A stretch of 64,000 bases of DNA from assembly GCA_963674705.1 (NCBI GenBank), contig OY771506.1, positions 576,001 to 640,000 of the forward strand, in the 5' to 3' direction. Under the pieces are notes generated by a model that was not told the DNA's origin, did no database searches, and saw only the letters and a program-made list of their open reading frames with translations. Of the stretch, positions 44,853 through 59,407 are shown piece by piece (position 1 is the first letter of the stretch; every line of letters begins with the position of its first letter). The stretch comes from Phycisphaeraceae bacterium (GTDB lineage: Bacteria; Planctomycetota; Phycisphaerae; Phycisphaerales; Phycisphaeraceae). Position numbers and translations under genes: made by a program.

Positions 44853-44882
44853 AGACAGTGCCGGTGTTAGCCGGCACTGTCT
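44853..44882 (-). terminator. Intrinsic terminator-like hairpin
   Basis: AGACAGTGCCGG-tgttag-CCGGCACTGTCT just downstream of the 44912 gene. Confidence 0.6.
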
Positions 44883-44911
44883 GTTACTTTTGTAGAGCGG
44901 GTAGCTGCGTT

Positions 44912-45943: not shown

Positions 45944-46138
45944 TCAAGCTCTTGTGTGGCTGTTCATCAGTTGATCCAGCGCGCGGACGTGCTGTGGGCC
46001 GTAGCGGCGGTGGCCGCCGACCGTGCGGTGCGACGGCGGGATCAGGCCGAGGCGTTCCCAGACGCGCAGCGACTCGGGCGATACGCCGAAGCGGTCAGCG
46101 AGTTTTCCGATGCTCATCATGTGAAGTTCACGTTCCAT
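45944..46138 (-). CDS. Stand-alone MerR-family HTH protein
   Basis: MSIGKLADRFGVSPESLRVWERLGLI...GGHRRY; no effector domain. Confidence 0.85.
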   Translation of the reverse strand: MERELHMMSIGKLADRFGVSPESLRVWERLGLIPPSHRTVGGHRRYGPQHVRALDQLMNSHTRA

Positions 46139-46406
46139 GTCATGTCCCCCTGCATCCTTCTATATCGATCACAATTCCGATCGCCTTATAGGCTTGAGGG
46201 GTGAGGCTTGAGGTTGGAAGTTTGAATGATGAAGTATTAGAGGTTGTGATTGATCACGTAATCAATCCGGCCCTCCCCCTTGCCCTCTCCCGGGGGGAGA
46301 GGGGATATAGTTTGCTTTGTCATTCTTCATTCAAGTGAAACTGCAAATTCATACTTCCTATCTCAAGCCTCACTCCTCAAGTCTCAAGCCTTCCTCGCAA
46401 CAACAA

Positions 46407-46488
46407 TGAGGTGGGACGGAGTTGAACCGCCAGGGTCTTTCGACGGCTGGGTTACAGCCAGCGGGGCCTGCCAATGCCCAACCACCTC
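46407..46488 (-). tRNA. tRNA-Tyr(GTA)
   Basis: Anticodon arm GCTGG-CTGTAAC-CCAGC, long variable arm, GAGGTGG/CCACCTC acceptor. Confidence 0.85.
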
Positions 46489-46616
46489 GGATGAGCCGTT
46501 AGCCGTTAGGCTTTGGCCATGAGCACGGAGTTGTTCCGCCTTTGGCGGATGGGGGCAGCAAGCTGCCCCGCTTAACGGCAAGCCTTTTTGCGCTAACAGA
46601 TGGTGGCTTCATAAAG

Positions 46617-46701
46617 CGGAAGGCGGTGGGCACGATCCACAAACTCAAACGAGTCCCGACCGGTTAGCAACCGGTGCCCGTCCCCGACGGGTTCACCTTC
46701 C
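46617..46701 (-). tRNA. tRNA-Ser(GCT), atypical T-loop
   Basis: ACCGG-TTGCTAA-CCGGT, long variable arm, T arm GTGGATCGTGCCCAC, G73. Confidence 0.75.
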
Positions 46702-46805
46702 TGGTGTATGTAGGCTTGAGGCGTGAGTCTTGAGGCTTGATTAAGCATGCAAAACGTAAGCATTGCGATACTCAAGCCTCATCCCTCAAGTCTCAAGCCT
46801 TCCAA

Positions 46806-46876
46806 AGGCCGGGGCGGGAATCGAACCCGCTTGGACGGGGTTGCAGCCCGTCGCCTTGCCATTCGGCCACCCGGTC
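46806..46876 (-). tRNA. tRNA-Cys(GCA)
   Basis: ACGGG-CTGCAAC-CCCGT, U73. Confidence 0.9.
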
Positions 46877-46931
46877 TTGTGAAGAGTGGATGGATGTGAA
46901 TTGAAGCAATAAAAACCGTTAAAATCCACAT

Positions 46932-47822
46932 ATGGACTTTCTATTCTGCTGTTATCCAAATCGCATTCGTGAAGTTGATCCGGATTATCAGGCCGAGGCT
47001 GATTGCGTAAGACAACTCAGTTCATCTGTGAGTTTGTTGGATCATGACGCTCTGCTTGAGGGAAGTGTCTCCAAATCAATCCGAGGCGTTGAATCCCGTA
47101 CAGATCAGAAACAGCTGTGCTATCGGGGGTGGATGATCCCACCGCCGTTGTATAAACAGCTATACGAGGGTCTACTTGAAAAGAACCTAGTGCTAATCAA
47201 TTCACCCCAGCAGTATCAACATTGCCATTACCTGCCGGATTCATATGAATCTATCAAAGGCAAGACGCCTGAGACTGTGTGGATCCCGGGACGACCTCCG
47301 TTTGATCCAGCACAGATCATGGCGGCAATCAAACTGTTTGGTGGCAAACCGTTGGTCCTGAAAGATTATGTGAAGTCGCAGAAGCACTATTGGAAGGAAG
47401 CCTGCTACATACCTGACTCAAACAAGCAAGATGAAGTCATGTCCCGGGTTAACAGGTTCATCGAGCTACAGTGTGATGACATCGAGGGTGGATTGGTGTT
47501 TCGCGCGTATGTGCCGATCAAGATCATTGGGCGACATGCGGTTAGTGGTATGCCGTTAAGTCATGAATATCGTGTTGTGTGGTTTGAACAGAATCCGGTT
47601 GTGGTTTGGCCTTATTGGGATGCTGCTGATCCGAGGGAATGTGATCCGCCTTTGGATGCATTTCGCGAAGTCGCGAACCAGATCAACAGTCGGTTTTTCA
47701 CGATGGATATTGCTGAGCTTGACGACAGCAGTTGGATCATTGTTGAGCTAGGCGATGCGCAGGTCGCAGGATTACCGGAGAATGCTGATCCGGTGACTCT
47801 GTATAAACCGTTAATTGATTGA
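46932..47822 (+). CDS. ATP-grasp domain protein (R2K clade / DUF4343-like)
   Basis: YRGWM, CHYLPDSY, LKDYVKSQKHYW, EYRV, FFTMDIA, IVELGDAQVAGL. Confidence 0.8.
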   Translation: MDFLFCCYPNRIREVDPDYQAEADCVRQLSSSVSLLDHDALLEGSVSKSIRGVESRTDQKQLCYRGWMIPPPLYKQLYEGLLEKNLVLINSPQQYQHCHYLPDSYESIKGKTPETVWIPGRPPFDPAQIMAAIKLFGGKPLVLKDYVKSQKHYWKEACYIPDSNKQDEVMSRVNRFIELQCDDIEGGLVFRAYVPIKIIGRHAVSGMPLSHEYRVVWFEQNPVVVWPYWDAADPRECDPPLDAFREVANQINSRFFTMDIAELDDSSWIIVELGDAQVAGLPENADPVTLYKPLID

Positions 47823-47850
47823 CTTGGCATATCAGAATGCAATTCAAAAA

Positions 47851-47922
47851 TGCGGCCGACAGGGATCGAACCTGCTCCTCCGCCGTGGCGGGGCGGCGCT
47901 CGGCCAATTGAGCTTCGACCGC
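47851..47922 (-). tRNA. tRNA-Gly(GCC), C33
   Basis: CCGCC-CCGCCAC-GGCGG, T arm GCAGG-TTCGATC-CCTGT. Confidence 0.8.
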
Positions 47923-47956
47923 GTGGTGGGTAGTTCGTTGTGATATCGATTAGAAG

Positions 47957-48029
47957 CACGCACGGTAGGGGTTGAACCCACATCTGGTGGATTTGGAATC
48001 CACTGCTCTGCCGATTGAGCTACGTGCGT
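47957..48029 (-). tRNA. tRNA-Trp(CCA)
   Basis: GTGGA-TTCCAAA-TCCAC, G73. Confidence 0.9.
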
Positions 48030-48179
48030 GTGGGGAGAGCTGTTAGCTGTTAGCTGTTAGCCGTCAGTAAGAAGTATTCCGCCTGCGGCGGATGGGGGTA
48101 GCAAGCTGCCCCGCTAAACGGGGAGAACGCGAAACGCGAAACGGCTTGAGCTAATGGCTAAGGGCTAACGGCTCATAAA

Positions 48180-48251
48180 CTGCACCGGCAGGAATCGAAC
48201 CCGCAACCGTCTGCTTAACAGGCAGCCGCACTACCTTTGTGCTACGGTGCA
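48180..48251 (-). tRNA. tRNA-Asn(GTT)
   Basis: CTGC-CTGTTAA-GCAG, U1-A72, G73. Confidence 0.88.
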
Positions 48252-48302
48252 ATGTGTGTGATTGACTAAAGCCTCACCGCTCAAGTCTCAAGACTTTTCA
48301 AA

Positions 48303-48375
48303 TCACCCCGGCTGGGGTCGAACCAGCACGCTGCCGTTTAGAAGACGGCCGCTCTTCCGTTTGAGCTACGGGGCG
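48303..48375 (-). tRNA. tRNA-Arg(TCT)
   Basis: GCCGT-CTTCTAA-ACGGC. Confidence 0.9.
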
Positions 48376-48432
48376 ATGCTCGACTTATTCGATCGTTATT
48401 GACAGCGTGATGCGATACCTGACAATGCGGGT

Positions 48433-49470
48433 ATGTATGAAAATCAAACCAACAGTGACGGTGATAAAGGACCGGGGGCTGAGGCTGTCGCTCGTGTGGT
48501 TGACGCGGCGAATCAGCATCCCGATGAAGGGCCAACGGAAGAACTGATCACTGCGATCAATGAATTGGTTGCACAGGACAAGCATCTTGATGCGAACACG
48601 TATCGAGCCTTGTCGGAGAGCATCAAGCAGATACGGTCGCCGATGAGTGCGGGATTCGTCGCTGTCTGGTTAGGTGCGACGGTTGAAAATGGTGCGGACC
48701 CGCATGTGCCGTTGCCGCATGTTCTTGAATACCTGTACAACCTGATCGCCACGATCCAAACGCCGAAGGACGATGAGCCGGATGATGCGGTCCCCGAACC
48801 GGGCGAACTTGTGCAGCAAGCATTGGATCACCTGGGGCAGGCGCTGGTCGCGATGTTGATACGTTGTCCCGATGCGATCAGGGAACTCATCCGGCGCGAG
48901 CAGGCTGTATCCGAGCTTGAGCGCGTGGAGCATCTGGCGAGTGGACCCAAGTGGATATTAGCGTTACTTAGACAACGCAGCGGTGAGTTGCTTGTATTGC
49001 ACGGCGTTGAAGGGGTCGGCGTTCGTGTGAAGTATGAGAATATCGAAAACTGTTTTCACCTGTTCACGCTCCTTCAGGGTTTACTCCAGCGTGTGATGCC
49101 CGGCGCGAAGACGCAAAGCACGACGATGTACAAGATCGCGCGGGGTGAACTGGTCGGGCAGGTGCATGACTCGGCGTGGTGGCATTACGGCCGGGCCGGG
49201 GTGCCGAAGGCGGACTTTGTCGGGATGGTCTTTGGCGAGCCGACGCTAGATTCGATCGATGAGGTTGACGGACAACAGGTGTTGCTGCTCTGGCCGCCGA
49301 TCATCGCGGATCGTTCGTGGAACTCTGGCTTTTTCCAGCCGATCATCGATGCCAGGAAGCCGAACGTTGAGTTGCTGGAGAAGCTGTCGCCTGACGAGGT
49401 TAAACGCTGGCGCGAACGGTTGGGTTTGCCTGCGGCAAAGGCGCGGCCGTGGTGGCGTTTCTGGTCTTGA
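48433..49470 (+). CDS. Hypothetical protein with C-terminal RPWWRFW tail
   Basis: 345-aa ORF with TTGACA upstream; family not recognised. Confidence 0.7.
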   Translation: MYENQTNSDGDKGPGAEAVARVVDAANQHPDEGPTEELITAINELVAQDKHLDANTYRALSESIKQIRSPMSAGFVAVWLGATVENGADPHVPLPHVLEYLYNLIATIQTPKDDEPDDAVPEPGELVQQALDHLGQALVAMLIRCPDAIRELIRREQAVSELERVEHLASGPKWILALLRQRSGELLVLHGVEGVGVRVKYENIENCFHLFTLLQGLLQRVMPGAKTQSTTMYKIARGELVGQVHDSAWWHYGRAGVPKADFVGMVFGEPTLDSIDEVDGQQVLLLWPPIIADRSWNSGFFQPIIDARKPNVELLEKLSPDEVKRWRERLGLPAAKARPWWRFWS

Positions 49471-49483
49471 CCGTGAGTATGAA

Positions 49484-49555
49484 AGCCGGCGGCCGGGATC
49501 GAACCGGCGCCTCCGTGGTACGAGCACGGTGTTCTGCCTGTTGAACCACACCGGC
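49484..49555 (-). tRNA. tRNA-Thr(CGT)
   Basis: CCGTG-CTCGTAC-CACGG. Confidence 0.88.
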
Positions 49556-49632
49556 GATAAAACCCTCGGCCCGAAGACCGAGGGCTGCAGAGAAAAAACG
49601 CGAAACATTCGCATGCAGACACCATTAAGAAG

Positions 49633-49705
49633 TGGCCCCGGTGGGACTCGAACCCACACCCAGCGGATTAAAAGTCCGCTGCTCTGCCGATCGAGCTACA
49701 GGGCC
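49633..49705 (-). tRNA. tRNA-Lys(TTT)
   Basis: GCGGA-CTTTTAA-TCCGC. Confidence 0.92.
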
Positions 49706-49869
49706 TTGTCGTGTTGTTTTAAAATGGGAGAGCGAGCAGGCTGGCAGCCTGCGGCTAATGGGTGAGTGCGTTGGGATGAAGTTGTTGAAAACAAGATAGC
49801 CAGTTGATCTACGATGTTTCGCGGCGGGCTTTGTTACCCTACACCCCACACCCTAAACCCTATCCACAA

Positions 49870-49943
49870 TGCGCCGTGTCGGCCTCGAACCGACCACCTG
49901 CTGGTTGGAAGCCAGCCGCTCTGCCGAGATGAGCTAACGACGC
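49870..49943 (-). tRNA. tRNA-Gly(TCC)
   Basis: GCTGG-CTTCCAA-CCAGC. Confidence 0.9.
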
Positions 49944-50024
49944 CAGGTATGTTTCATTTCTGCATGCTCTGTGTGGCGCAGTCGCAATACGGCCACGGCC
50001 GATCATCTATAATGGGCGGCACCG

Positions 50025-51896
50025 ATGGGACAGCTTGCCGAGAATACGGTGTTGCGATCACAACGTGTTTACAAAACCCGTTGGATCTCGGGTTTTGTCC
50101 TGATCTCTGGTGTCACGATGGCTGGCGCCTGTCTGTTCATCATTCTCGCGACATTGCTTGCGGGCAAATCCAGCCCGATCATGCAAGTGATTGTCACAGT
50201 CTGGCTGGGGATCACGGCAGCTTTCTTTCTCTGGTATCCACTTCACATGTTCAGCCGATCGCTGACGCGATATATCTTCACACCTGAAGCGTTAATTGAA
50301 CGTTCGCTGTTCCGCAAGCAGGTCATGCCCTGGCGTGACGTGACGGATTATTCCGTGGTGGCTGGTGACGCGGGGGAGCCGTTGTCACACATCATCTTTC
50401 ATCTGGTCGACGGCCAGACCAAACAACTGCCGTTGGACCTGATCCCCGAAGGCCGGGTGGAGACGTTACTTTCGGCATATGTGCCGTTGATCGCGGAGCA
50501 TGGGTTGGAGCGACCGAGGCAAGCCGGATCGTCAAAAAGCGAACTGCGTAAAAGCACACGGAAGGAAGCCATCTCCGATTGGGCTACTCTTTGTTTCAAC
50601 ATTTTGTTTGGTGGGATTTGTATCACAGTATCTGTCTTTCTCATGCTTGGTCGCATGGAGTATCAACTAATCATCAGCGATCCGGTGGAAGTGACCGCGA
50701 CGGTTATTGAACTGGATGTTGATGAAGAGGATGCATCGTTAACATTTGAATTCACTGACGATCAAGGCCATGTTGTCCGATCTAGCCGGTCGGTCGAGGT
50801 GAGCACAGCTAAAACATTGGCTGTAGGCAGCGAAGTAACCGTCAAGCACCTGCGTGGTTCACCTACAAAAGTCCGATTGAAGAAGGGCGATCTGGATCAC
50901 CAAGAGTGGCTGTACGTATTCGTCAGCTTCCCGCTGGGGTGGTTGTGTATTTGGGGGTGTTTCCGGCTGCTCAGGTCGATTTTTGGGCCTAAGACAAAAT
51001 CGGCGTCATGGTCGGTCCAGTCTAATTATGACGAGGCGATTATCTCGTACAGCCCGGCATATATGGAAACCAGTGTTGCTATGATCCCCGAGCAACATGT
51101 CGGTGCGGCGGTTTTTCTTCGTCTGAACAGCAAGGAAAACAGCAATCAATTCGTGGATCAGATGTCCACTTTTTCACCAAGCTCGCATGAATTGAACGGG
51201 AACAATATCCAGTGTGAAAACATTGCCGGGATTTTCCTGTGTATGGGGCCCGTGGCGATGTCTCGTTTTGTATCCCGCTTGGGCGAGCCGGCCAAGACCC
51301 GTGCTGAATATGTCGTGCTCGACATGGCGGACAGTGTGGAAGTAAGCCGGTGGGCGGTACGGAATGATCCGAGGCATCGCGACATGGATGAATTATTCAG
51401 CGATGAAGTCGTTCGGTTCTGTTGCCGAAATAACACGGTTGGGCCGGTGCAGCCGGGTGAACTGACATACGTGTTTGATCGATTCATCATGCAAATGATC
51501 AAAGCCCTGTGTGAAGATCAGACGCCCGCGGGGCTATACGACGTCAGTATCTGTCAAATCCTGAATCTCTCACCCAAAGACCTTGATGCCAGGATCATGC
51601 TGTCGCTGCAGATGAACCGGTTGCGGATTTTTGTGCAGCTGCGCGGCGTCAATCAAGCTTCGGTGGCTGAGTATCAATTTGGACAGTGGCGGCGCACCCC
51701 GGAAATGCCCGTGCCATTAAGCATGCGCAACTTCAAGTGGTTGAAGTATGTGTTAGCGCTGCCGTATGGTCCGTGGCTGATATTGCCGGTGTTACCGTAT
51801 CTCATCTACTGGGCGATGGAATTGCCATGCAAATGGTATCGGCACTTTCAATTGAATAAAGCGCGGGCCGCGTTGTTGCAATCTTCCTCGATCTGA
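50025..51896 (+). CDS. Multi-pass membrane protein (bacterial PH-like and DUF3592-like segments)
   Basis: TM pairs, ERSLFRKQVMPWRDV, VTATVIEL...VGSEVTVKH, TATAAT upstream. Confidence 0.65.
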   Translation: MGQLAENTVLRSQRVYKTRWISGFVLISGVTMAGACLFIILATLLAGKSSPIMQVIVTVWLGITAAFFLWYPLHMFSRSLTRYIFTPEALIERSLFRKQVMPWRDVTDYSVVAGDAGEPLSHIIFHLVDGQTKQLPLDLIPEGRVETLLSAYVPLIAEHGLERPRQAGSSKSELRKSTRKEAISDWATLCFNILFGGICITVSVFLMLGRMEYQLIISDPVEVTATVIELDVDEEDASLTFEFTDDQGHVVRSSRSVEVSTAKTLAVGSEVTVKHLRGSPTKVRLKKGDLDHQEWLYVFVSFPLGWLCIWGCFRLLRSIFGPKTKSASWSVQSNYDEAIISYSPAYMETSVAMIPEQHVGAAVFLRLNSKENSNQFVDQMSTFSPSSHELNGNNIQCENIAGIFLCMGPVAMSRFVSRLGEPAKTRAEYVVLDMADSVEVSRWAVRNDPRHRDMDELFSDEVVRFCCRNNTVGPVQPGELTYVFDRFIMQMIKALCEDQTPAGLYDVSICQILNLSPKDLDARIMLSLQMNRLRIFVQLRGVNQASVAEYQFGQWRRTPEMPVPLSMRNFKWLKYVLALPYGPWLILPVLPYLIYWAMELPCKWYRHFQLNKARAALLQSSSI

Positions 51897-51915
51897 GCCC
51901 GACTCACAAAATCAA

Positions 51916-51990
51916 TCAGCCCGGCTGGATTCGAACCAGCGATCTCTCCCGCCCGAAGGGAGCGTGATGACCAAGCTTCACCACAGGCTG
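51916..51990 (-). tRNA. tRNA-Pro(CGG)
   Basis: CTCCC-TTCGGGC-GGGAG, C1-G72, A73. Confidence 0.9.
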
Positions 51991-52120
51991 TTAAGCACAA
52001 TGCATAGTTGATTGAGTGTTCAATCAAATATAGTTCACACGAGATTGCTGGCCCTCACCCCGGCCCTCTCCCAAGGGGAGAGGGAGTAAAACACTAAGCC
52101 GCAAGCGGCTTTTGGGTGAA

Positions 52121-52192
52121 TCAGGGGAGAGGGAGTCGAACCCGCTTCCTCGGGGTCACGGCCCGAAGCTTTACCGCATAAGCTATCCCCTG
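52121..52192 (-). tRNA. tRNA-His(GTG), atypical
   Basis: TCGGG-CCGTGAC-CCCGA; no encoded G-1, A73, one T-stem mismatch. Confidence 0.7.
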
Positions 52193-52233
52193 AATGACGG
52201 GCCCCCGATCCCGCCTCATTGAATCATGTGTGA

Positions 52234-52482
52234 TTATTGTCTGAAGTAATGGCTGCGGTTTGAGCCGTCGAGTTTGCCGGTCTTCATGCAGCACTTCTTA
52301 AAAGCGTTTGCCGCTGCCGCAAGGACATGGATCGTTGCGGCCGAGCTTTTCGATCAGTTCTTTGTTGCCATGAACGCATTGGTCGCCCCGCTTGACTTGT
52401 GACTCGGACGGGTAGCCGTAGCGTCGCTTGCTCATGGGCTGGAAAGGATTGGTCGTCGTTAAAAGCGATGGTCCTTGTGCAT
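52234..52482 (-). CDS. SEC-C motif metal-binding protein split across frames by three +1 shifts (81 aa when joined)
   Basis: SD AAAGGAGGTG before ATG 52482; [14 protein letters not shown] continues as KKCC in the +1 frame. Confidence 0.75.
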
Positions 52483-52548
52483 GGTGCACCTCCTTTGATA
52501 ATAGATTGTTACCACTCACACTCCCCCTCTCTTGCGTCAGAAGTTATA

Positions 52549-53529
52549 ATGCAGGAGATGAAATTACGGCCTAAAGCATTAGAAAACTTGGCGGTAATGA
52601 TTTGCGGAAATAAAGATGATCCGTATGGAATACCATTTTCATATCGCTCTAGTTCATACTTAACAGGTTTCTTTTCTGAGTGTGACTTAACATTTGTACA
52701 TGATGGCTCAACACGTAAAAGGTGGGTACTAGATGTTCTAAATTCACTAAACCAAAATGTCGCAAGTATGCCCGATCTCCCCTCAGATGACCTGGTTCGG
52801 GTAATCACCGAATTAATGGATCCAGACCATTTTGACGCGGAAGATACCGATCGAGGACAGGCCTTGAACAAGTTAAACCAAACTCTCAGCCGAGATTCCT
52901 TGATCGCATATATTGAAAATAATGGGCAGTGTTATTTACGACATACAGGCGCTGGTACAACATCTGCAATGTTGCCTCAACGACCCCGCCCACTATCTCC
53001 AGAAGAAAAACAACAGCGAGACACACTGTCCAAATTTCTCGATAACGCGAGCGAAGACGAGTTTACAGAAACAGTACTAGTCCCATTATTTCAGCGCCTT
53101 GGATATCACAGAGTCATAGCATCGGGGCACAAAGAAAAAGTATTAGAATTCGGGAAAGACTTATGGATGAAGTTTCAATTACCAACTGCCCATTGGATAT
53201 ACTTTGCCATACAGGTAAAAAGAGTGAAAATTGATGCCAAAGGTAAAAGCAGTGGTAATGTTACAGAAGTACTCAATCAGGTGAGAATGGCTCTGGACCA
53301 CGAGATATTTGATCCCGATGTAAATCGAACAGTACTACCAGATCATATCTACGTTATTTCGGCTGCAGAGATAACCCGAGCAGCACAAGCTTGGATCATT
53401 CGACATCTAGATAGAGAACAACGACGTCAAATCATCTTCATGGATCGCACGGAATTATTGAATTTCGCAGCTCGAATAGTTACAGAACTACCAACGCCGA
53501 ATTCTATCGATGACGAAATACCTTTCTAA
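52549..53529 (+). CDS. Putative restriction-endonuclease-fold (Mrr-like) protein with AbiJ-like N-terminal domain
   Basis: YRSSSYLTGFF...HDGSTRKRWV, EDEF...LFQRLGY, EFGKD, AIQVK; visibly AT-rich. Confidence 0.65.
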   Translation: MQEMKLRPKALENLAVMICGNKDDPYGIPFSYRSSSYLTGFFSECDLTFVHDGSTRKRWVLDVLNSLNQNVASMPDLPSDDLVRVITELMDPDHFDAEDTDRGQALNKLNQTLSRDSLIAYIENNGQCYLRHTGAGTTSAMLPQRPRPLSPEEKQQRDTLSKFLDNASEDEFTETVLVPLFQRLGYHRVIASGHKEKVLEFGKDLWMKFQLPTAHWIYFAIQVKRVKIDAKGKSSGNVTEVLNQVRMALDHEIFDPDVNRTVLPDHIYVISAAEITRAAQAWIIRHLDREQRRQIIFMDRTELLNFAARIVTELPTPNSIDDEIPF

Positions 53530-53532
53530 AAA

Positions 53533-53605
53533 TCAGAGCGGCAGGACTCGAACCTGCGGCCGCCTGGTCCCAAACCAGGCGCTCTGCCAACTGAGCTACG
53601 CTCTG
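53533..53605 (-). tRNA. tRNA-Pro(TGG)
   Basis: CCTGG-TTTGGGA-CCAGG. Confidence 0.92.
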
Positions 53606-53664
53606 TGATAAAGCCCGGCCGGGCGCGCTTGTGAGAAGCGGCCCGATGGCCGGGGATATAGGGG

Positions 53665-54279
53665 TTAATCGTGCAACTCGGTGTTCCAGTACGCGGTGTC
53701 CACGAAGTGTTTCCACGTGTCGTGGCGGAACCGATGCGAACGGAACATGAGTGCCGTCGGGTCCGGACGCTTCGGCTGACGGATCAACTTCAGGCCGGCC
53801 TCTTCGGGCGTGCGGTTGCCTTTGATCGCGTTAACTTCGACGCAGCAGCAAACCAGGTTTTCCCAATTCGTCTTGCCGCCACGCGAGGTGGGGATGACGT
53901 GGTCGAGGTTCAGCTTGCTGGCAGGGAGTTTGCGGCCGGTGTACTGGCAGGTGTAGTTATCCCGCAGGTACACGTTCTTTCGGCTCAAGCGCACGGCCTG
54001 GCGTTGCATACGCCGATCGAACCGCAGCATGCGGACGACGCTTGGGACGATGATGGCCGAGGTTACCGTTCGCACGAAGCTGTGGGCCTCGGGCTCGAAC
54101 TCATGTGCGAATTCACTGAGCTCGTGCCAGGATGCGAAGTCGTAAGCGCGATAGTTTTCGTCAACGGCTTCGACTCGGCCGACAAACAGATCGGCCAGCG
54201 CTTCAGCAGCGGTGATGATCCGCAGCGCGGCGTAGTTACGGTTCAGAACGAGCACATCATGCGACAGAGCCGACGTCAT
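53665..54279 (-). CDS. HNH endonuclease (McrA-like)
   Basis: VLVLNRNY, SRKNVYLRDNYTCQY, LDHVIP.SRGG..WENLV..C...N..KG; SD AAAGGAGGT. Confidence 0.92.
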   Translation of the reverse strand: MTSALSHDVLVLNRNYAALRIITAAEALADLFVGRVEAVDENYRAYDFASWHELSEFAHEFEPEAHSFVRTVTSAIIVPSVVRMLRFDRRMQRQAVRLSRKNVYLRDNYTCQYTGRKLPASKLNLDHVIPTSRGGKTNWENLVCCCVEVNAIKGNRTPEEAGLKLIRQPKRPDPTALMFRSHRFRHDTWKHFVDTAYWNTELHD

Positions 54280-54380
54280 GGCCGACCTCCTTTCAGGATT
54301 GAAGTTGATTGACTGGTTTTGTCCCCTCTCCCCAGGCAACGAATTCGATCTGCGTTGCAACTTCTTACAGAAGAAAACTA

Positions 54381-54549
54381 TTAGCCACCGATGAACACGG
54401 ATGAACACAGATCAGAATAAATCCTGTTTCGTGTTTCGAACACATTGACTCAAGATGCCTGTTCTGACTACTTGAACTGCGATGAATCTGATGCACTTAA
54501 GCTTCTCTTGCTTTGCATCTGTGTTCATCCGTGTTTATCTGTGGCTAAA
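54381..54549. repeat. MITE-like element with (GATGAACACR)n inverted arms
   Basis: TTAGCCACCGATGAACACGGATGAACACAGAT...ATCTGTGTTCATCCGTGTTTATCTGTGGCTAA. Confidence 0.8.
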
Positions 54550-54613
54550 ATTGGCTGGCTGAAGACTCCGAACGAATATGTTGCGAGGGAAGAGGGAGCA
54601 GGAGTAAAGCAAG

Positions 54614-54685
54614 TGGAGCTGCGGGGAATCGAACCCCGATCTCCCGGGTGCAAGCCGGGTGCTCTCCCGATTGAGCTACGGCCCC
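54614..54685 (-). tRNA. tRNA-Ala(TGC)
   Basis: CCCGG-CTTGCAC-CCGGG, G3-U70. Confidence 0.92.
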
Positions 54686-54696
54686 ATGAAAAGGAA

Positions 54697-54761
54697 TGTC
54701 GCGGAGAGGATTCGAACCTCCATCAACTGGGAAGTGCCTCTGCCGATTGGGCTACGACGAC
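54697..54761 (-). ncRNA. tRNA-like RNA lacking an anticodon arm (or tRNA pseudogene)
   Basis: Acceptor ends, D arm TAGCCCAATCGGCAGAGGC and T arm GGAGGTTCGAATCCTCT present, joined only by ACTTCCCAGTTGAT. Confidence 0.6.
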
Positions 54762-55993
54762 AAAATTAAAAAAAGTAAGTGGCCCGGGTGGGAGTCGAAC
54801 CCACAACGCACCGGATCTGAGCCGGCGTCCTCTGCCGGTTGGGATACCGAGCCGGAGATAGAGCAGGAGTAAAACAGAGCAGGAGAACAGGAGATAGGAG
54901 AGCAGGAGAAAAAGATAAGTGCTCTCGGCTGGGGTCGAACCAGCACGCCGTTGCCGGCAGCGGGGTTTAAATCCGCCGCGTCTGCCTGTTCCGCCACGAG
55001 AGCGTTTGTTTGTTTAACACGAATGCCGCCGGCAGGATTCGAACCTGCACGTTGCCGGGTTTGAGCCGGCTTCCTCTGCCGATTGGGATACGGCGGCCAG
55101 GTTGGTGCGTCGGGCGGGATGATGAGTTTGCTGCGATACGGGCGGACGGTTTGTCGCGGGGTGTGAAGTTGCCGAAAGCGTTTCGCTAGCAGCGTACAGA
55201 ATCGACAGTATTCAAGATCCACATCTTTTAGCTTAACTTGAATACAGCGTGAACCATCCAAGTATCTCTTAGCTTGCTTTTCGGCAATCTCTGTATACGA
55301 GCGTGCGTAATACGGGCCACCATAGATCCGCCACAACTCACTAATGCTGATAGGTGCTCTGCCCAGCACGGCGTCTATAAAGTCGAAACCCCAAGGGGGA
55401 TACCCCAAGATTCGCCGGGCGGTGATGGGCGCCAGGTCAATCATGAACCAACGATGACGCCGGTGATGCAATTGGAAACCGGCGCAGACATCAAAAAACA
55501 CACAAGGTGGGTCAAACTTTCTGCATGACCTAAACGACGGCGACATCATCAGTAGACCGGTGTCCGGATGCACATAGAACCGGTCGCGCCAATGGCGGCC
55601 CCAGATTGGTTGCCAACCGAAGGGGTAGCCGACCGAACAGGGTTGGCCGTCAATGATCCGGACATGTCGGACAACAAGCCAGAGCACGTGGTCGCGCACG
55701 TGGTTTTGAACGGTACTGTCAACCCGGACGTGTTGGCTGATCTCCGACCAGACATCGTTCCACGGCTTGCCGACCGAGCTCTGCAGGAAACGGATCAGTG
55801 GGGCCAGGTTTTCGCTTTGCCACTTCATATTTTTCCATGTCTGCCAGGCTCGTTTCATACCTTCTATATGGGGTAGGCCGGTGTCGTCATCGGCGTCGCG
55901 TGGTAATCGGTAGCGCTTGGCGCCACGGGGGAACTTATTACGGCAGCCTCCCCGCGGTCGCTCGACGATCAGCTTGGCCATGTCGCTTCGCAC
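54752..55993 (-). CDS. Hypothetical basic protein; ORF runs through three tRNA-Leu genes before a stop
   Basis: SD AAAGGAGGTG before GTG 55993; MRSDMAKLIVERPR, ENLAPLIRFLQSSVGKPWNDVWSEI, FYVHPDTGLL. Confidence 0.7.
   Translation of the reverse strand: MRSDMAKLIVERPRGGCRNKFPRGAKRYRLPRDADDDTGLPHIEGMKRAWQTWKNMKWQSENLAPLIRFLQSSVGKPWNDVWSEISQHVRVDSTVQNHVRDHVLWLVVRHVRIIDGQPCSVGYPFGWQPIWGRHWRDRFYVHPDTGLLMMSPSFRSCRKFDPPCVFFDVCAGFQLHHRRHRWFMIDLAPITARRILGYPPWGFDFIDAVLGRAPISISELWRIYGGPYYARSYTEIAEKQAKRYLDGSRCIQVKLKDVDLEYCRFCTLLAKRFRQLHTPRQTVRPYRSKLIIPPDAPTWPPYPNRQRKPAQTRQRAGSNPAGGIRVKQTNALVAEQADAADLNPAAGNGVLVRPQPRALIFFSCSPISCSPALFYSCSISGSVSQPAEDAGSDPVRCGFDSHPGHLLFLILSS
54780..54853 (-). tRNA. tRNA-Leu(CAG), short variable loop
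   Basis: GCCGG-CTCAGAT-CCGGT, 5-nt variable region, A73. Confidence 0.85.
54920..55003 (-). tRNA. tRNA-Leu(TAA)
   Basis: GCGGA-TTTAAAC-CCCGC, long variable arm. Confidence 0.88.
55024..55097 (-). tRNA. tRNA-Leu(CAA), short variable loop
   Basis: GCCGG-CTCAAAC-CCGGC, 5-nt variable region. Confidence 0.85.
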
Positions 55994-56048
55994 GGCACAC
56001 CTCCTTTCTGCTGTTGCGGTTGTTGCGGTTGCTACGAAGACAGGACAA

Positions 56049-56121
56049 TCACCCCGGCAAGAATCGAACTTGCAGCCTTCGGCTTCGGAGGCCGATGCTC
56101 TTCCGGTTGAGCTACGAGGTG
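56049..56121 (-). tRNA. tRNA-Arg(CCG)
   Basis: TCGGC-CTCCGAA-GCCGA. Confidence 0.9.
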
Positions 56122-56292
56122 TTAGTGAAAACAAAAGCGGTTTGCCACGAAAAGGCACAGAAGACACAAAAGGGCTGGCTTAAGAAGCACAGAACATTGC
56201 GTAACAAACCAATTGAATACTCATGTATTTCTATTTTGTGGTTTTTGTGCCTTTTGTGGCTACTTCTTAGTCTTACATGAATGTGAGATTAA

Positions 56293-56365
56293 ACAGGCCG
56301 GCGGGATTTGAACCCGCAACCTGCCGGTTCAAAGCCGGCCGCTCTTCCGGTTGAGCTACAGCCCG
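56293..56365 (-). tRNA. tRNA-Gln(TTG) with Arg-like body
   Basis: GCCGG-CTTTGAA-CCGGC; D arm identical to tRNA-Arg(CCG). Confidence 0.8.
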
Positions 56366-56366
56366 A

Positions 56367-56438
56367 TCGACCCGGCGTGACTCGAACCCACGCACAGGCC
56401 CTTATAAGGGACCCGCTCTGCCACTGAGCTACGGGTCG
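56367..56438 (-). tRNA. tRNA-Ile(TAT)
   Basis: GGTCC-CTTATAA-GGGCC, A73, one T-stem mismatch. Confidence 0.75.
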
Positions 56439-56594
56439 GGGGATTCGATCTGAAGTACCAATTCAATTGGATTACCCGCTCGATCATGTTGCATACGAAT
56501 ACACAATGAATTCGGCCCTCACCCCGGCCCTCTCCCGAGGGGAGAGGGGGAAAGTACAAGCCTCAAGACTCACGCCTCAAACCTTTTCAAAAAG

Positions 56595-56667
56595 CCACCC
56601 CGGCAGGATTCGAACCTGCACCTTCCGGATTCGTAGTCCGGCGCCCATCCGCTTGAGCTTCGGGGTG
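56595..56667 (-). tRNA. tRNA-Arg(ACG)
   Basis: CCGGA-CTACGAA-TCCGG. Confidence 0.9.
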
Positions 56668-56682
56668 AAGTACCCGACGGCG

Positions 56683-57417
56683 TTATGCAAACCGACGGGC
56701 GATGTATGTATTGATCGTGTCAACAACACGACGCTGCGATGCGAGCACATGGTCTGCGTGAAGTCGAAAATCACGAGGAATGTGGCCATGCTCATCGTAG
56801 GCCACCTCTCGCCAAAGGATCACCAGGCCGACGCCCGCGAATGTGTATTGATGGCGGTTTTCCGAAAAATGACAACGACGGACTAACTCTGCGCCGTACG
56901 ATACACGTGCCAGATCCCGGCCGAAGTTACCCGTCCAGGTCACGATCTGTTCGAGGTCGGCTTCAACAAGAGGCCAGCCGTTCGATGCAACAAGATCACG
57001 TAACGTCATCAGCTTCAGGACCCTCGCCATATCGCGATCACGTTTGCGTGGGTATACCTTATCGCCCAGCCGCCAGATCAGTCGATTGCAGAACCGGCAA
57101 CTGCAATGAATATCAACCGGTGTTTGCCGCAATGGGTGATCTGCGGAGGTATGTCCGAACGATACTAACATGCTTGTGTAAGCAACCATGTCAGCATCAT
57201 GAAGAAGTAGTTCTTCCGGGATAACGCCGCGGTTATTCACAAGCCAATCCGCAGCAGCTTCGCACTCAGGTATATGTTTGTGGTCGTGGTCGAACCGCAG
57301 GCCGGTTTTGAAACGGGCATCACGGAGCCAATCGATGAATGCGTAGACAATCTGTTGTACACGTATCGCCTGATCAACTGTTTGTTTTGTGAGTACGATG
57401 CACCTGCCTTTGAGCAA
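56683..57417 (-). CDS. Hypothetical protein with CxCxxC motif
   Basis: 244-aa ORF filling the gap between tRNA-Thr and tRNA-Arg; start uncertain. Confidence 0.6.
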   Translation of the reverse strand: MLKGRCIVLTKQTVDQAIRVQQIVYAFIDWLRDARFKTGLRFDHDHKHIPECEAAADWLVNNRGVIPEELLLHDADMVAYTSMLVSFGHTSADHPLRQTPVDIHCSCRFCNRLIWRLGDKVYPRKRDRDMARVLKLMTLRDLVASNGWPLVEADLEQIVTWTGNFGRDLARVSYGAELVRRCHFSENRHQYTFAGVGLVILWREVAYDEHGHIPRDFRLHADHVLASQRRVVDTINTYIARRFA

Positions 57418-57419
57418 AG

Positions 57420-57492
57420 AGCCACGAGTCGGGATTGAACCGACGACCTGCGGTTTACAAGACCGCTGCTCTGCCAGTTGAGCTACCGTGGC
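57420..57492 (-). tRNA. tRNA-Thr(TGT)
   Basis: GCGGT-CTTGTAA-ACCGC. Confidence 0.92.
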
Positions 57493-57538
57493 GGGGAACT
57501 TTCGGGGGGAAACTTCCGGGGGAAACTTCCGGGGGAAA
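57493..57538. repeat. Short tandem repeat (GGGGGAAACTTCC), about 3.5 units
   Basis: Seen directly between tRNA-Thr and tRNA-Asp. Confidence 0.75.
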
Positions 57539-57539
57539 G

Positions 57540-57613
57540 CGACGCCGACGGGGATCGAACCCGTGACCTCTTCCGTGACAGGGAAGTGCTCTTGCCGATT
57601 GAGCTACGGCGCC
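57540..57613 (-). tRNA. tRNA-Asp(GTC)
   Basis: CTTCC-CTGTCAC-GGAAG, G73. Confidence 0.92.
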
Positions 57614-57640
57614 GTGCTTCAATCTGAATAGAAAGTATTT

Positions 57641-57734
57641 TTAGCCACGGATGAACACGGATGAACACAGATAAGATTTGAAAATATCTCATTCAGATCG
57701 TAATCCGTGTTTATCTGTGTTCATCGGTGGCTAA
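57641..57734. repeat. MITE-like element with (GATGAACACR)n inverted arms
   Basis: Same arms as 54381-54549. Confidence 0.8.
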
Positions 57735-57754
57735 TACAGGTTAATACAGCACAA

Positions 57755-57836
57755 AGCTACCGACGGGAGCCCCCGGTTTTGAACCCGTGACCGCCCGCTT
57801 ACCACGCGGGTGCTCTTCCGGCCGAGCTCCGGCAGC
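57755..57836 (-). tRNA. tRNA-Thr(GGT) with 9-nt T-loop insertion (possibly pseudogene)
   Basis: CCCGC-GTGGTAA-GCGGG; T arm ACGGG-TTCAAAACCGGGGGCT-CCCGT. Confidence 0.65.
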
Positions 57837-57849
57837 ATTGTTAAAACAA

Positions 57850-57922
57850 TTGACCCGAGAGGAATTGAACCTCTTGCCCCCCGCTTATCAGGCGGGTGCT
57901 CTTGCCGGTGAGCTACGGGTCA
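57850..57922 (-). tRNA. tRNA-Ile(GAT)
   Basis: CCCGC-CTGATAA-GCGGG. Confidence 0.9.
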
Positions 57923-58000
57923 AGTCTGTAATAAAGCGCATCGCCCCGCCGCCCGATTGCGACGGGGCTTGCGATTTTTTTACATCCATCCACTCTTAAC

Positions 58001-58012
58001 TTGTCAATGAAC
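58001..58012 (-). promoter_or_regulatory. boxA-like antitermination element
   Basis: GTTCATTGACAA resembles the rRNA-operon boxA consensus (GYTCTTTRAMAA). Confidence 0.5.
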
Positions 58013-58039
58013 GCGTGGCTGTAAACACAGCCGACTAAG

Positions 58040-58111
58040 CCGCTGGTCCCGGATTCGAACCGGGGGCTCCCGGGCTTCAACCGAGCGCTTTACCCGCTAA
58101 GCGAACCAGCG
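58040..58111 (-). tRNA. tRNA-Phe(GAA), atypical (G37, C1-G72, G73)
   Basis: CTCGG-TTGAAGC-CCGGG; T arm CCCGG-TTCGAAT-CCGGG. Confidence 0.8.
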
Positions 58112-58185
58112 CCCCCCCGATCCCCGGAAGTTTTTCCCTCGTGTTATTCACACGGAAGGAATGCTTCCGGGGATCGGGTTAAAAG

Positions 58186-58257
58186 TCGCCGCGGTCGGGA
58201 TTGAACCGACGCACTTCCCCATGTAACGGGGATGCTCTACCGCTGAGCTACGCGGCA
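58186..58257 (-). tRNA. tRNA-Val(TAC)
   Basis: TCCCC-GTTACAT-GGGGA. Confidence 0.88.
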
Positions 58258-58439
58258 TCGTTGGCGCACCGATCGCGTGGACGGTTTTGGCCGTCTTTGT
58301 CGCACCGATCGGTGCGCCACTTTCGGGTTGTCTCGGCCGAGAAGGGATATACCCCCGTCTCTCAGCCTCTCCCCAGCCCCCGGAAGTTTTGTCACTCGCG
58401 CTACTCACGCGTAAGTAATCTTCCAGGGACGGTTGTTAA

Positions 58440-58511
58440 TGGCGGCGACGGGACTCGAACCCGTGTCTCCGGGACATGAACCCGGCAAGGAACCAACTCC
58501 TCCACACCGCT
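58440..58511 (-). tRNA. Initiator-like tRNA-fMet(CAT)
   Basis: CCGGG-TTCATGT-CCCGG (three G-C pairs), A1/C72 mismatch. Confidence 0.8.
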
Positions 58512-58525
58512 ATTTACTTTTTAAG

Positions 58526-58599
58526 TCGCGATGGCTGGACTTGAACCAGCAACCTTTCCCGTATGAAGGGCGTGCTCTACACTTTTGAGCTACATCGCG
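58526..58599 (-). tRNA. tRNA-Met(CAT) elongator (Ile2 not excluded)
   Basis: cgCCC-TTCATAC-GGGaa, weak anticodon stem. Confidence 0.75.
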
Positions 58600-58647
58600 A
58601 ATTTGTTGTTTTCGATCGTCCTTTCTTTTTAACACTCAAACTTTGAA

Positions 58648-58719
58648 TGGCCGCGGCTGGGATCGAACCAGCGCCCCCCTGCTTGTCGTGCAGGTGATCT
58701 ACCGCTGATCTACGCGGCC
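58648..58719 (-). tRNA. tRNA-Val(GAC), A32/C33
   Basis: CCTGC-ACGACAA-GCAGG. Confidence 0.82.
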
Positions 58720-58732
58720 ATGGGATAACCAA

Positions 58733-58803
58733 TAGCCTTGGCGGGAATTGAACCCGCGGCTCCGCCTTGAAAGGGCGGCGTGCTTCCACTGCACCACAAG
58801 GCC
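58733..58803 (-). tRNA. tRNA-Glu(TTC)
   Basis: CCGCC-CTTTCAA-GGCGG. Confidence 0.88.
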
Positions 58804-58872
58804 AATGCATAACGACAGTTACGTCGTTTCGAACGTCGTGTGGCGTCGGGTTTTGAGTCTGGGGAAGCGGGC

Positions 58873-59100
58873 TTACGCGGCGGATCGATCGCCCGGCATA
58901 AATCGCCGTGATCGACCTTTGCCGGCGGCCTGTGTCCCTGGTAGTAGCACGCATAACGCATGCCTGTAAATACCGAGGTAACTGAAGGCCGCTTGGCATA
59001 TGTCCGCAAGAATCGCGGACACGTCCCCAATGCCGCCAGACAGCATCGACGCACAGGACGTGCGTTCGTATGTATTCAGTTTTTGCTGTCTGAGGGTCAT
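58873..59100 (-). CDS. Putative 75-aa leader ORF of the tRNA operon
   Basis: SD TAGGTGA before ATG 59100; lies between the promoter and the first tRNA. Confidence 0.55.
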   Translation of the reverse strand: MTLRQQKLNTYERTSCASMLSGGIGDVSAILADICQAAFSYLGIYRHALCVLLPGTQAAGKGRSRRFMPGDRSAA

Positions 59101-59142
59101 CGGTTCACCTACTTCGTTAGAAGTTACTATTAACTGGCGAGA

Positions 59143-59171
59143 ACTATATCGGCGCATCGGCCGATGTGCAA
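59143..59171 (-). promoter_or_regulatory. Sigma70-type promoter of the tRNA operon, with a dyad in the spacer
   Basis: TTGCAC-N17-TATAGT; near-palindrome GCGCATCGGCCGATGTGC at 59152-59169. Confidence 0.65.
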
Positions 59172-59281
59172 CAGTAAATACGCGAATTCATGCAAAATTA
59201 TTGCAGCGCGTCGTCATAAGTTTAATAAATTGAGATTCTGGAGGAAAAAAAGTTGACGATTGGATCTATGAAAAAAGCATT

Positions 59282-59376
59282 TTAGCCACAGATGAACACA
59301 GATGAACACAGATAAGAATCAAATACATGGATTCATTCTGTTTGAATCCGTGTTTATCTGTGTTCATCGGTGGCAA
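59282..59376. repeat. MITE-like element with (GATGAACACR)n inverted arms
   Basis: Same arms as 54381-54549. Confidence 0.8.
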
Positions 59377-59407
59377 ATAGATTGGCTTTGATTAGCAGGA
59401 TGCATAC

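Follow-up and report, generated by a model that had tools for sequence, protein, structure and literature searches.

The window, a stretch of 64,000 nucleotides from the Phycisphaeraceae genome G000, contains a spare and, judging from its genes, partly eroded Phycisphaerales long tRNA array in a conserved cassette of promoter, leader, payload and terminal HTH gene. The leaders of this cassette contain 19 or 20 amino acids and are followed by a C-rich tract. We infer that the array is likely induced by translation stress and that its leader would act as a ribosome-controlled, Rho-dependent attenuator, a reading to which we assign a probability of about one half.

A spare tRNA array

Thirty tRNA genes were called by ARAGORN, with all 20 amino acids represented. 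Their density is 2.42 per kb (30 in 12.4 kb); a tRNA array unit is defined as at least 20 tRNA genes at a minimum of two per kb (PMC4758250). The count refers to 30 intact-looking genes, and two damaged ones lie in the same interval.

46407..58804, minus strand: tRNA array, 30 intact-looking genes, 20 amino acids, 2.4 per kb
57762..57832, minus strand: degenerate tRNA-Thr(GGU) with a T-arm insertion relative to G008
54697..54761, minus strand: relic of tRNA-Leu(GAG), anticodon arm deleted, Rfam 32.2 bits

An earlier note on this DNA had listed 31 tRNAs. Its order matches the 30 ARAGORN calls exactly, all of them on the minus strand as it had stated; the 31st, Thr(GGU), was called at a lowered threshold only and is likely a pseudogene. 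The CAU gene at 58439-58512 is initiator-like, as had been proposed: its 1:72 pair is mismatched and its anticodon stem has three G-C pairs. The D-loop GG is present in 29 of the 30 array tRNAs. The tRNA described as armless is the Leu(GAG) relic, whose position is occupied by Leu(GAG) in G004, G005, G006 and G008; record 4 of contig X1 is identical to the window at this point, with no gaps.

The array is a spare set, as the note had suggested, and does not hold the only copies in the genome: 46 dispersed standard tRNAs also span 20 amino acids, and Ile(UAU) is the sole anticodon found in the array and not among them. The claim of completeness holds for amino acids only, since seven sense codons (UCN serine and CUU/CUC/CUA leucine) are left unread even when superwobble is allowed. 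No array gene encodes CCA (0/30), but this is a trait of the host, because it is equally absent from all 48 tRNAs called elsewhere in the genome. The array is thus real and spare, while its completeness and its lack of CCA had been overrated. Four features that bear on regulation had been missed, namely the phased element upstream of the promoter, the leader ORF with its full range of amino acids, the conserved HTH gene that ends the cassette and the frame breaks of one SD-led gene.

Also in agreement with the note, no integrase is visible nearby. The closest tyrosine-integrase match (PF00589) lies at 543510-543965 of the genome, about 78 kb from the array (about 621900-635200), and a PHROGs search with ten proteins returned HNH and HTH matches only. 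A prophage or integrative element was ruled against, there being no tyrosine integrase or phage genes beside the array.

Promoter, leader and C-rich tract

We found 19 promoter-leader units in all, 16 of them at the head of arrays.

59215..59242, minus strand: conserved upstream element, candidate protein-binding site, in 19/19 units
59143..59171, minus strand: predicted sigma70-type promoter, TTGCAC-17 nt-TATAGT, conserved in aligned units
58873..59100, minus strand: leader ORF of 75 codons, SD-like AGGTG at 59106-59110
58805..58872, minus strand: C-rich, G-poor tract directly after the leader stop, then a hairpin at 58812-58827

The promoter has one copy in G000 by nhmmer; a scan of the region with the promoter consensus gave chance-level results (10 promoters, 10.2 expected). 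Its conservation suggests that one promoter serves the array and that the array forms one operon. The distance from the start of the upstream element's ACTT core to the -35 box downstream of it is 47-50 nt in 18 units and 60 nt in one. This element is single in G000, scoring 33.8 against 20.6 for the next site and a shuffled maximum of 21.0, with a PWM whose training set included G000.

The leader frame is open for 60-87 codons in 19/19 units despite indels, and the chance that a shuffled leader stays open for 59 codons is 17.5%. The conserved frame and the SD-like sequence suggest that the leader is translated. In G000 it contains 19 of the 20 amino acids (no Trp) and ends in Ala-stop, which for a single leader is unremarkable (P 0.42-0.60). 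Across the 19 leaders, 12 contain all 20 amino acids and seven contain 19, compared with about 18 under the null. For 12 divergent leaders, chosen by hand, the total was 235 amino acids, compared with null means of 216.1 (sd 4.7) and 216.7 (sd 4.0), and was matched in 0/200,000 null draws; five additional leaders beyond this set contain 20, 20, 18, 20 and 20. Leader codon diversity equals that of the shuffles. We note that an N-terminal motif common to the leaders supplies some rare residues by descent.

The 30 nt past the leader stop contain on average 14.6 C and 5.1 G (19 units). The tract is a candidate rut site or anti-SD arm, and the leader is predicted to act as an attenuator of the Rho type; rho in G000 scores above its family cut-off. 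No intrinsic terminator was called between 58873 and 58804, and the proposed off-switch therefore depends on a compositional, rut-like tract. The hairpin at 58812-58827 shows some compensatory changes, and a consensus fold gave local hairpins only, with a covariation term of -1.75. Duplexes between a unit's own SD and its post-stop sequence are stronger than swapped ones (p 0.002 for 16 units, 0.003 for ten divergent units), but the helix is predicted in the full-length ensemble in only about 5-7/19 units and several units rank poorly against swaps.

In our preferred interpretation, when charged tRNAs are plentiful the ribosomes would clear the leader, the C-rich tract would be exposed and Rho would halt transcription before the first tRNA. 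With almost any tRNA in short supply or damaged, ribosomes would slow within the leader, the tract would be masked, possibly by pairing with the leader SD region, and transcription would reach the tRNAs. Read-through would extend to rtcB where it is present; the tRNAs themselves function without being translated.

The terminal HTH gene and possible control at initiation

45944..46138, minus strand: terminal MerR-type HTH-only gene, 64 aa, Pfam MerR, E 1.6e-15

This gene lies 33-277 nt past the last tRNA in 14 genomes (15/30 loci) and encodes the most constant protein of the cassette. As the last cistron it would be expressed on recovery of translation, and its product would likely exert feedback on the promoter, perhaps by way of the phased element upstream. 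That element has no second copy in G000. The protein resembles the BldC-like HTH-only MerR family (NF033787) in consisting of an HTH alone, in its length of about 64 aa and in having no effector domain, but it is not a BldC member because its NF033787 score of 34.7 falls below the cut-off of 77. Classical MerR activators have a C-terminal effector domain and a promoter spacer of 19-20 nt; this assignment was rejected for a protein of only 64 aa, HTH alone, with a promoter spacer of 17 nt.

In Anabaena the trn operon is repressed at the level of transcription by TrcR, a ribbon-helix-helix protein reported to be confined to cyanobacteria (PMC10272220). Both there and here a small DNA-binding protein, a putative one in this cassette, is linked to a tRNA array and to translation-stress genes; the candidate regulator here differs in being of the MerR type and encoded within the cassette. 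Stress could accordingly act at initiation, with an unstable repressor, the terminal HTH protein, decaying under a translation block and freeing the promoter, while the leader ORF would merely protect the transcript or aid its processing. Autoregulated TrcR does drop under translation inhibitors in Anabaena (PMC10272220), and the constancy of the HTH protein, the phased and conserved upstream element and the lack of an intrinsic terminator 3' of the leader would all fit. This explanation leaves unaccounted for the 19-20 amino acids of all 19 leaders, and a palindrome common to the promoter and the region upstream of the G000 HTH gene is not conserved. Moreover, a site 5' of the -35 box, as this element is, would be more typical of an activator. 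We consider control at initiation doubtful as the main explanation.

Erosion and distribution of the array

As the earlier note had observed, three co-oriented minus-strand ORFs share an SD, AAAGGAGGT, at 52488-96, 54285-93 and 55999-56007. Further genes interrupt the array.

52234..52482, minus strand: SEC-C (zinc-knuckle) mini-gene, SD at 52488-96
53665..54279, minus strand: HNH endonuclease-family gene, 204 aa, SD-led, Pfam HNH_5, E 1e-11
54752..55993, minus strand: SD-led gene of an unnamed family with a VERPR motif, SD at 55999-56007
56683..57417, minus strand: sense-strand passenger ORF, 244 aa, no family found, in G004 only of six loci compared
52549..53529, plus strand: antisense passenger gene, no family found, in G004 only of six loci compared
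50025..51896, plus strand: antisense passenger gene, 623 aa, no family found, in G004 only of six loci compared
48433..49470, plus strand: antisense passenger gene, 345 aa, no family found, missing from all six loci compared
46932..47822, plus strand: antisense passenger gene, R2K-clade ATP-grasp domain, Pfam R2K_3, E 9e-32, missing from all six loci compared

The true 3' end of the VERPR gene is uncertain because its frame continues across four tRNA positions. Its family appears in the Atlas only as unnamed clusters; the cluster represented by its relative L089 occurs in 26/80 SEC-C loci, with direct tblastn matches in six. Array-type orthologues of the HNH gene in six relatives share 75-98% identity.

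The tRNA order is largely common to related arrays, which also carry a band-7/slipin gene and, in 9/14 cases, rtcB. Both genes are missing from the G000 array, and an rtcB of 35% identity lies elsewhere in the genome (2322967-2324106). The distribution among relatives is patchy. An HNH match at E<1e-62 occurs in 4/401 genomes of the class (two of the four not inspected) and the leader pattern in 2/401 genomes of the phylum, and matches to the array query were not clustered in G009, a 96% complete genome of the same genus. The upstream neighbour, judged by N-terminal sequence, is unlike in 12/13 arrays.

G000 lacks three tRNAs that its close relative G004 has, namely Ser(CGA), Glu(CUC) and an undamaged Leu(GAG). 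From this gene content the G000 copy is an eroded one, complete for amino acids and incomplete for codons. The array could thus have once been functional and horizontally spread and now be silent and decaying here, with the leader and HTH gene retained to control other genes. Besides these missing tRNAs, such a history would fit the two pseudo-tRNAs, the four antisense insertions, the absence of rtcB and slipin, and the scattered single tRNA matches that were all a 1.7-kb array query gave in ten related genomes; in G163, G997, G895 and G265 the leader and HTH gene have outlasted the tRNAs, with zero or one relic between them. Decay of this copy also shows in stem mismatches, which affect nine of the 30 array tRNAs (4/46 outside the array), and in the tRNAs for His, Gly, Phe and Gln, which are unlike their housekeeping counterparts at the discriminator or -1 position. 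The retained genes argue against a silent array: 21 of the 30 tRNAs have no stem mismatch, the T-loop TTC is kept in 29/30, and the promoter, leader, HNH, SEC-C and HTH genes are all intact. The odd loop features are, in addition, common across arrays, G37 of tRNA-Phe being found in 11/15, and so are not private to G000. We regard silent decay as unlikely.

The array might instead serve mainly as a reserve against nucleases or phages that infection or released toxins would trigger, its anticodon loops being altered to resist tRNA-cutting toxins as proposed for phage tRNAs (PMC10264068). This would agree with C38 in 12/30 array tRNAs (1/46 outside), with A37 instead of G37 in the tRNAs for Arg(CCG), Arg(ACG), Leu(CAG) and His and with rtcB in relatives, but PADLOC returned only generic HNH matches and a weak mad1 HTH match, and we think this role improbable as the main one, though compatible with an attenuator because tRNA cleavage would stall the leader too.

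A mini-gene with conserved +1 frame breaks

In G000 the predicted 81-aa SEC-C product requires three +1 shifts, at UUU codons 52464-62 (next UAA), 52445-43 (next CCA) and 52303-01 (next UAA). A +1 break is present in 79/81 SEC-C loci from many phyla, with UUU at all 79 (59 UUU-C, 18 UUU-U and two UUU-G). The UUU-C/U form thus occurs in 77 loci, compared with 6.7% of Phe codons in G000 genes, and a control Phe within the same gene is UUC in 30/31. Codon position 3 is the least conserved before the break site and position 1 after it; the median pairwise identity is 70%. Sequencing error or a private pseudogene was rejected as the cause: the breaks span many phyla, occur in gap-free contigs from two studies (X1 may be the source sample), and natural in-frame variants exist for each shift site. 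The gene is a candidate for programmed +1 frameshifting. Automated gene calls mostly stop at the break.

The SEC-C gene is not specific to arrays, as just 9/80 loci hold at least five same-strand tRNAs; rtcB is present in 18/80. If it is decoded by programmed +1 shifts at UUU-C/U, the yield of full product would climb steeply as Phe decoding becomes slippery, because two or three serial slips are needed. One could imagine a self-testing circuit in which the leader meters ribosome speed and releases the tRNAs, SEC-C meters frame fidelity, its slips possibly aided by the G37 tRNA-Phe of the array, and the HTH protein closes the loop on recovery of translation. We offer this as a speculation and consider it unlikely.

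Comparison with known systems

By gene number, density, supernumerary status and patchiness the array is an L-array, and Planctomycetes are among the phyla listed with L-arrays or tRNA array units (PMC8421152; PMC4758250). L-arrays such as the trn operon of Anabaena PCC 7120 are likewise supernumerary to a full set, add few new anticodons, are patchily distributed and have HNH and rtcB neighbours (PMC8421152, PMC4758250); those of cyanobacteria adjoin rtcB, and the Anabaena one is induced by translation stress, with 23/26 tRNAs charged (PMC8421152). Unlike the Anabaena operon, the G000 array is chromosomal, and three features set it apart from the L-arrays described: the all-amino-acid leader ORF, the MerR-type HTH gene at its end and the mini-gene with its frame breaks. 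The words leader, attenuat-, frameshift, MerR and SEC-C are all absent from the main text of PMC8421152.

Leader-peptide attenuators include the trp/his type and the Rho-dependent mgtL and tnaC types. The G000-type leader resembles them in being a short SD-led ORF between promoter and payload, conserved in frame and poorly conserved in peptide. It differs in sampling all amino acids rather than one and in its predicted gating of tRNA genes, and in Phycisphaerales it has no U-tract terminator.

In bacteria UUU_Ynn is prone to +1 shifts (PMC5009743). Like the programmed +1 frameshifts at UUU-Y/YUU-U (prfB, YopN-TyeA and the influenza PA-X motif; PMC5009743), the SEC-C gene has a conserved break on a shift-prone Phe codon, often with a stop codon next, but it would need two or three serial shifts within about 80 codons. 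Neither the main text of PMC3711429 nor 300,000 characters of PMC5009743 mention SEC-C, and limited literature searches found neither an all-amino-acid leader nor a SEC-C frameshift gene.

The array by itself is ordinary for its kind. The switching-on of long tRNA arrays is known for one cyanobacterium, through TrcR, and the cassette described here may represent a different and directly testable design, in which the array is accompanied by an HTH gene and by a leader sampling all amino acids. As for the SEC-C gene, it recurs across many phyla in the neighbourhood of RNA-repair genes and is a candidate for programmed frameshifting; a need for two or three successive slips within some 80 codons would, if true, be an unusual form of recoding.

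Promoter and leader

The front end of the array in the genome holding the window (G000) consists of three features.

59242-59215, minus strand: phased upstream element
59171-59143, minus strand: sigma70-type promoter
59100-58873, minus strand: leader ORF of 75 codons, upstream of the first tRNA

A pattern derived from the element, promoter and leader identified 19 promoter-leader units in Phycisphaerales, 16 of them in front of arrays and three not; a 20th unit, in the related genome G265, came from a later profile search and was left out of the leader statistics. In every one of the 19 units the leader frame stays open, over 60-87 codons; the last residue is Ala in 18, and a C-rich, G-poor tract directly follows the stop codon. 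Each of the 19 leaders contains 19 or 20 different amino acids, compared with about 18 expected, and 12 contain all 20. The G000 leader is without Trp, and its coverage by itself is not significant. For 12 divergent leaders, picked by hand, the coverage sums to 235, where two nulls give 216-217 (0 of 200,000 draws), an excess which is inflated by kinship and a common N-terminal motif. A further five leaders, which come from another genus of Phycisphaeraceae, two gammaproteobacterial arrays and one acidobacterial locus and do not belong to this set, contain 20, 20, 18, 20 and 20 amino acids. Leader codon diversity was rejected as a signal, being the same as in shuffles, which leaves amino-acid coverage alone standing.

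No intrinsic terminator was called after the G000 leader, and a rho gene is present in G000. The SD region pairs with its own post-stop tract better than with swapped tracts (p 0.002-0.003), and in full-length ensembles this helix appears in a minority of units. In all of G000 the promoter-leader was found once, and no further site for the upstream element scored higher than the shuffled maximum; the element is unique there. The sole match in a metagenome pattern scan (locus L107) was false and lies inside a gene.

In our view, with a probability of about 0.5, the array is a stress-inducible operon for spare tRNAs and RNA repair, whose leader would act as a ribosome-controlled and probably Rho-dependent gate; all of the regulatory steps of the cassette are ones that we infer.

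Terminal HTH gene and persistence of the cassette

The final gene of the array encodes a MerR-type HTH protein of 64 amino acids which lacks an effector domain and falls under the BldC cut-off. Its profile matched 28 of the 301 genomes of the order. Array tRNAs lie 33-277 nt upstream at 15 of the 30 HTH loci (14 genomes); two further loci offer hardly any upstream sequence, and no tRNA was found in the sequence available for the other 13. Among relatives of G000 the HTH gene lies about 40 nt behind a tRNA. Promoter and leader stand immediately ahead of the HTH gene in genomes G163 and G997, and three other genes separate leader and HTH in G895 and G265, the latter also having one relic tRNA. 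Since leader and HTH gene are found together without an array in these four genomes, they form a cassette that survives loss of the tRNAs. The anatomy of this cassette and its conservation are directly observed.

Two other genera were noted. At three loci of genus g47 (L156, L157 and L146), three genes including an ABC-transporter-like pair replace the tRNAs between leader and HTH. Genus g25 (L116, L148 and L149) has a more divergent leader of 65-89 codons, both complete examples of which contain all 20 amino acids; leader and HTH gene are flanked there by a prmC-like gene and, downstream, by a conserved gene that occurs in G000 without leader or HTH.

The main rival reading is that the HTH protein controls initiation in a TrcR-like manner (PMC10272220, in excerpt), which we consider unlikely. 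One candidate operator shared by the G000 promoter and the HTH upstream region, ATCGG-N9-CGATATAG, is not conserved in relatives.

Array tRNA genes

The earlier note described 31 tRNAs; their order and minus-strand orientation hold, and the number called by ARAGORN is 30 (46407-58804). Two degenerate genes were also seen.

57762-57832, minus strand: degenerate tRNA-Thr(GGU) gene with a T-arm insertion, seen only at a lowered threshold
54697-54761, minus strand: Leu(GAG) gene lacking its anticodon arm through deletion ('armless')

Recognition of the latter as a Leu(GAG) deletion rules out a novel tRNA-like RNA; its YrlA match was weak (22.6 bits compared with 69) and was disregarded.

Outside the array, the single-contig G000 genome of 5.54 Mb has 48 tRNA calls, comprising two SeC and 46 standard tRNAs. 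Comparison with this housekeeping set bears out the proposal that the array is a spare set, as the 46 dispersed tRNAs already cover all 20 amino acids; Ile(UAU) is the sole tRNA exclusive to the array. The second SeC call (G000:C1:708446-708537) looks spurious next to the canonical one at 1821572. The set is complete, as had been claimed, for amino acids but not for codons, with four serine (UCN) and three leucine codons unreadable even with superwobble. CCA is encoded by none of the 30 genes, in agreement with the earlier note, and its absence is ruled out as a marker of foreign origin because it is also encoded by none of the 48 tRNAs outside the array.

A second rival, that the array is silent and decaying, we rank after HTH-controlled initiation and regard as less probable still. 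Stem mismatches number ten in nine of the 30 array genes, compared with four in four of the 46 outside. The T-loop TTC is present in 29 of the 30 array tRNAs, as is the D-loop GG. C38 occurs in 12 of 30 array tRNAs compared with one of 46 outside. Several array tRNAs have A37 where the housekeeping counterpart has G37; the array Phe is reversed, with G37 for A37, and this G37 was found again in 11 of 15 arrays. At the discriminator or -1 position, the array tRNAs for His, Gly, Phe and Gln depart from their housekeeping counterparts, which leaves the charging of these array tRNAs uncertain.

The spacers of window 46190-59380 contain REP-like repeats of genome-wide families with 65, 42 and 188 matches. 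A fourth spacer repeat has three copies in all, two of them here.

The SEC-C candidate frameshift gene

52482-52234, minus strand: SD-led SEC-C zinc knuckle gene in four pieces, with a +1 shift predicted at each of three UUU codons

A genome scan confirmed at least 201 SEC-C relatives in many phyla, of which the best 80 (three of them duplicating arrays already collected) were used; with G000 the set comprises 81 loci, with a median identity of 70%. A +1 shift is needed after the CPCGS motif in 79 of the 81 loci, the other two being in frame, and the site is UUU-C in 59, UUU-U in 18 and UUU-G in two. The SD-led start at the N-terminus lies +1 out of frame in 66 loci, 65 of which have an in-frame UUU-C/U, and +2 out of frame in six (three with two serial sites, three ambiguous); it is in frame in four loci and was not found in five. 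An extra break precedes the DG motif in 18 of the 81. As controls, UUU-C/U accounts for 775 of the 11,580 Phe codons of G000 genes, and the neighbouring conserved Phe of the SEC-C gene is UUC in 30 of 31 cases. The least conserved codon position shifts from 3 to 1 past the frameshift site.

Assembly errors are ruled out by the recurrence of the break in 79 of 81 loci and by contigs from two studies which are gap-free in this region. An internal start at an in-frame Met is unlikely, as the residue is Met in just 16 of the 81 loci. Transcriptional slippage is unlikely on runs of 3-4 T, and most sites have only such runs. According to the searched text of a review, UUU_Ynn is prone to +1 shifts in bacteria (PMC5009743); SEC-C is not mentioned there or in the main text of PMC3711429.

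Among 1,409 homologues, the C-terminal part is in frame in some proteins. A SEC-C scan of viral sequences yielded a single locus, whose C-terminal site is in frame. AlphaFold models of in-frame relatives are of low confidence (mean pLDDT 55, above 70 in the knuckle region alone).

Within 7 kb of the best 80 of at least 201 SEC-C loci we found rtcB at 18, slipin at 12, HNH at ten, an Rsr/TROVE-like family at six and prfH at five; nine have at least five same-strand tRNAs. The most frequent neighbour is an unnamed family (26 of these 80) to which another SD-led array gene, the VERPR gene, belongs. In the window (54752-55993) this gene has no stop ahead of the Leu tRNAs, and its frame crosses four tRNA positions; the copy in genome G007 is broken.

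Related arrays and implications

Querying 60 relatives with the HNH protein of the array gave six array-type orthologues, every one within an array of largely equal gene order; additional arrays were obtained via SEC-C and HTH searches. The HNH family was matched in 59 of 61 genomes searched, and a second HNH paralogue, with about 42-44% identity, is located at G000:C1:1408508-1409131, some 550 nt away from a housekeeping tRNA-Tyr. Nine of the 14 arrays with sufficient sequence contain rtcB, and many also contain a band-7/slipin gene; both genes are missing from the arrays of G000 and its relative G004. Ser(CGA), Glu(CUC) and intact Leu(GAG) are present in the G004 array and missing in G000, which has four antisense passenger genes inside its array. 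The distribution is patchy, and the upstream neighbour gene differs in 12 of 13 arrays. No integrase had been seen at the array, and indeed about 78 kb separate it from the closest tyrosine integrase.

Between tRNA-Trp and the slipin gene, related arrays share some 500-600 nt of non-coding sequence that contains tRNA-like hairpins; this stretch is missing in G000 and could be a Y-RNA-like RNA.

L022:3850-4490, L023:1550-2160, L025:8190-8745 and L026:1390-1980, minus strand: shared non-coding stretch

Rfam searches of seven related loci gave tRNA as the sole family among the 150 matches listed.

Two further observations concern other regions. Window 43680-45673 contains two tandem paralogues of about 250 amino acids with no Pfam match and a PEP...RRK tail, which we take to be a sorting-like motif. 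Phage-type primase-like and serine recombinase-like genes, judged by eye, lie at G000:C1:2121273-2128121 and are unrelated to the array.

Literature look-ups, covering largely open-access main texts, gave nothing relevant on the leader cassette or the SEC-C frameshift gene. The array fits the definitions of tRNA array units (PMC4758250) and L-arrays (PMC8421152) in the portions of these surveys consulted, both of which list Planctomycetes. The array itself is thus of a known kind, and it is the cassette and the frameshift gene that set it apart. A cleaner test case for attenuation is offered by two gammaproteobacterial arrays (L055 and L088). Their 54-codon leaders, located about 250-500 nt ahead of the first tRNA, have an N-terminal motif similar to the one above, and after them come alternative hairpins and a U-tract terminator (the hairpin with U-tract being judged by eye).
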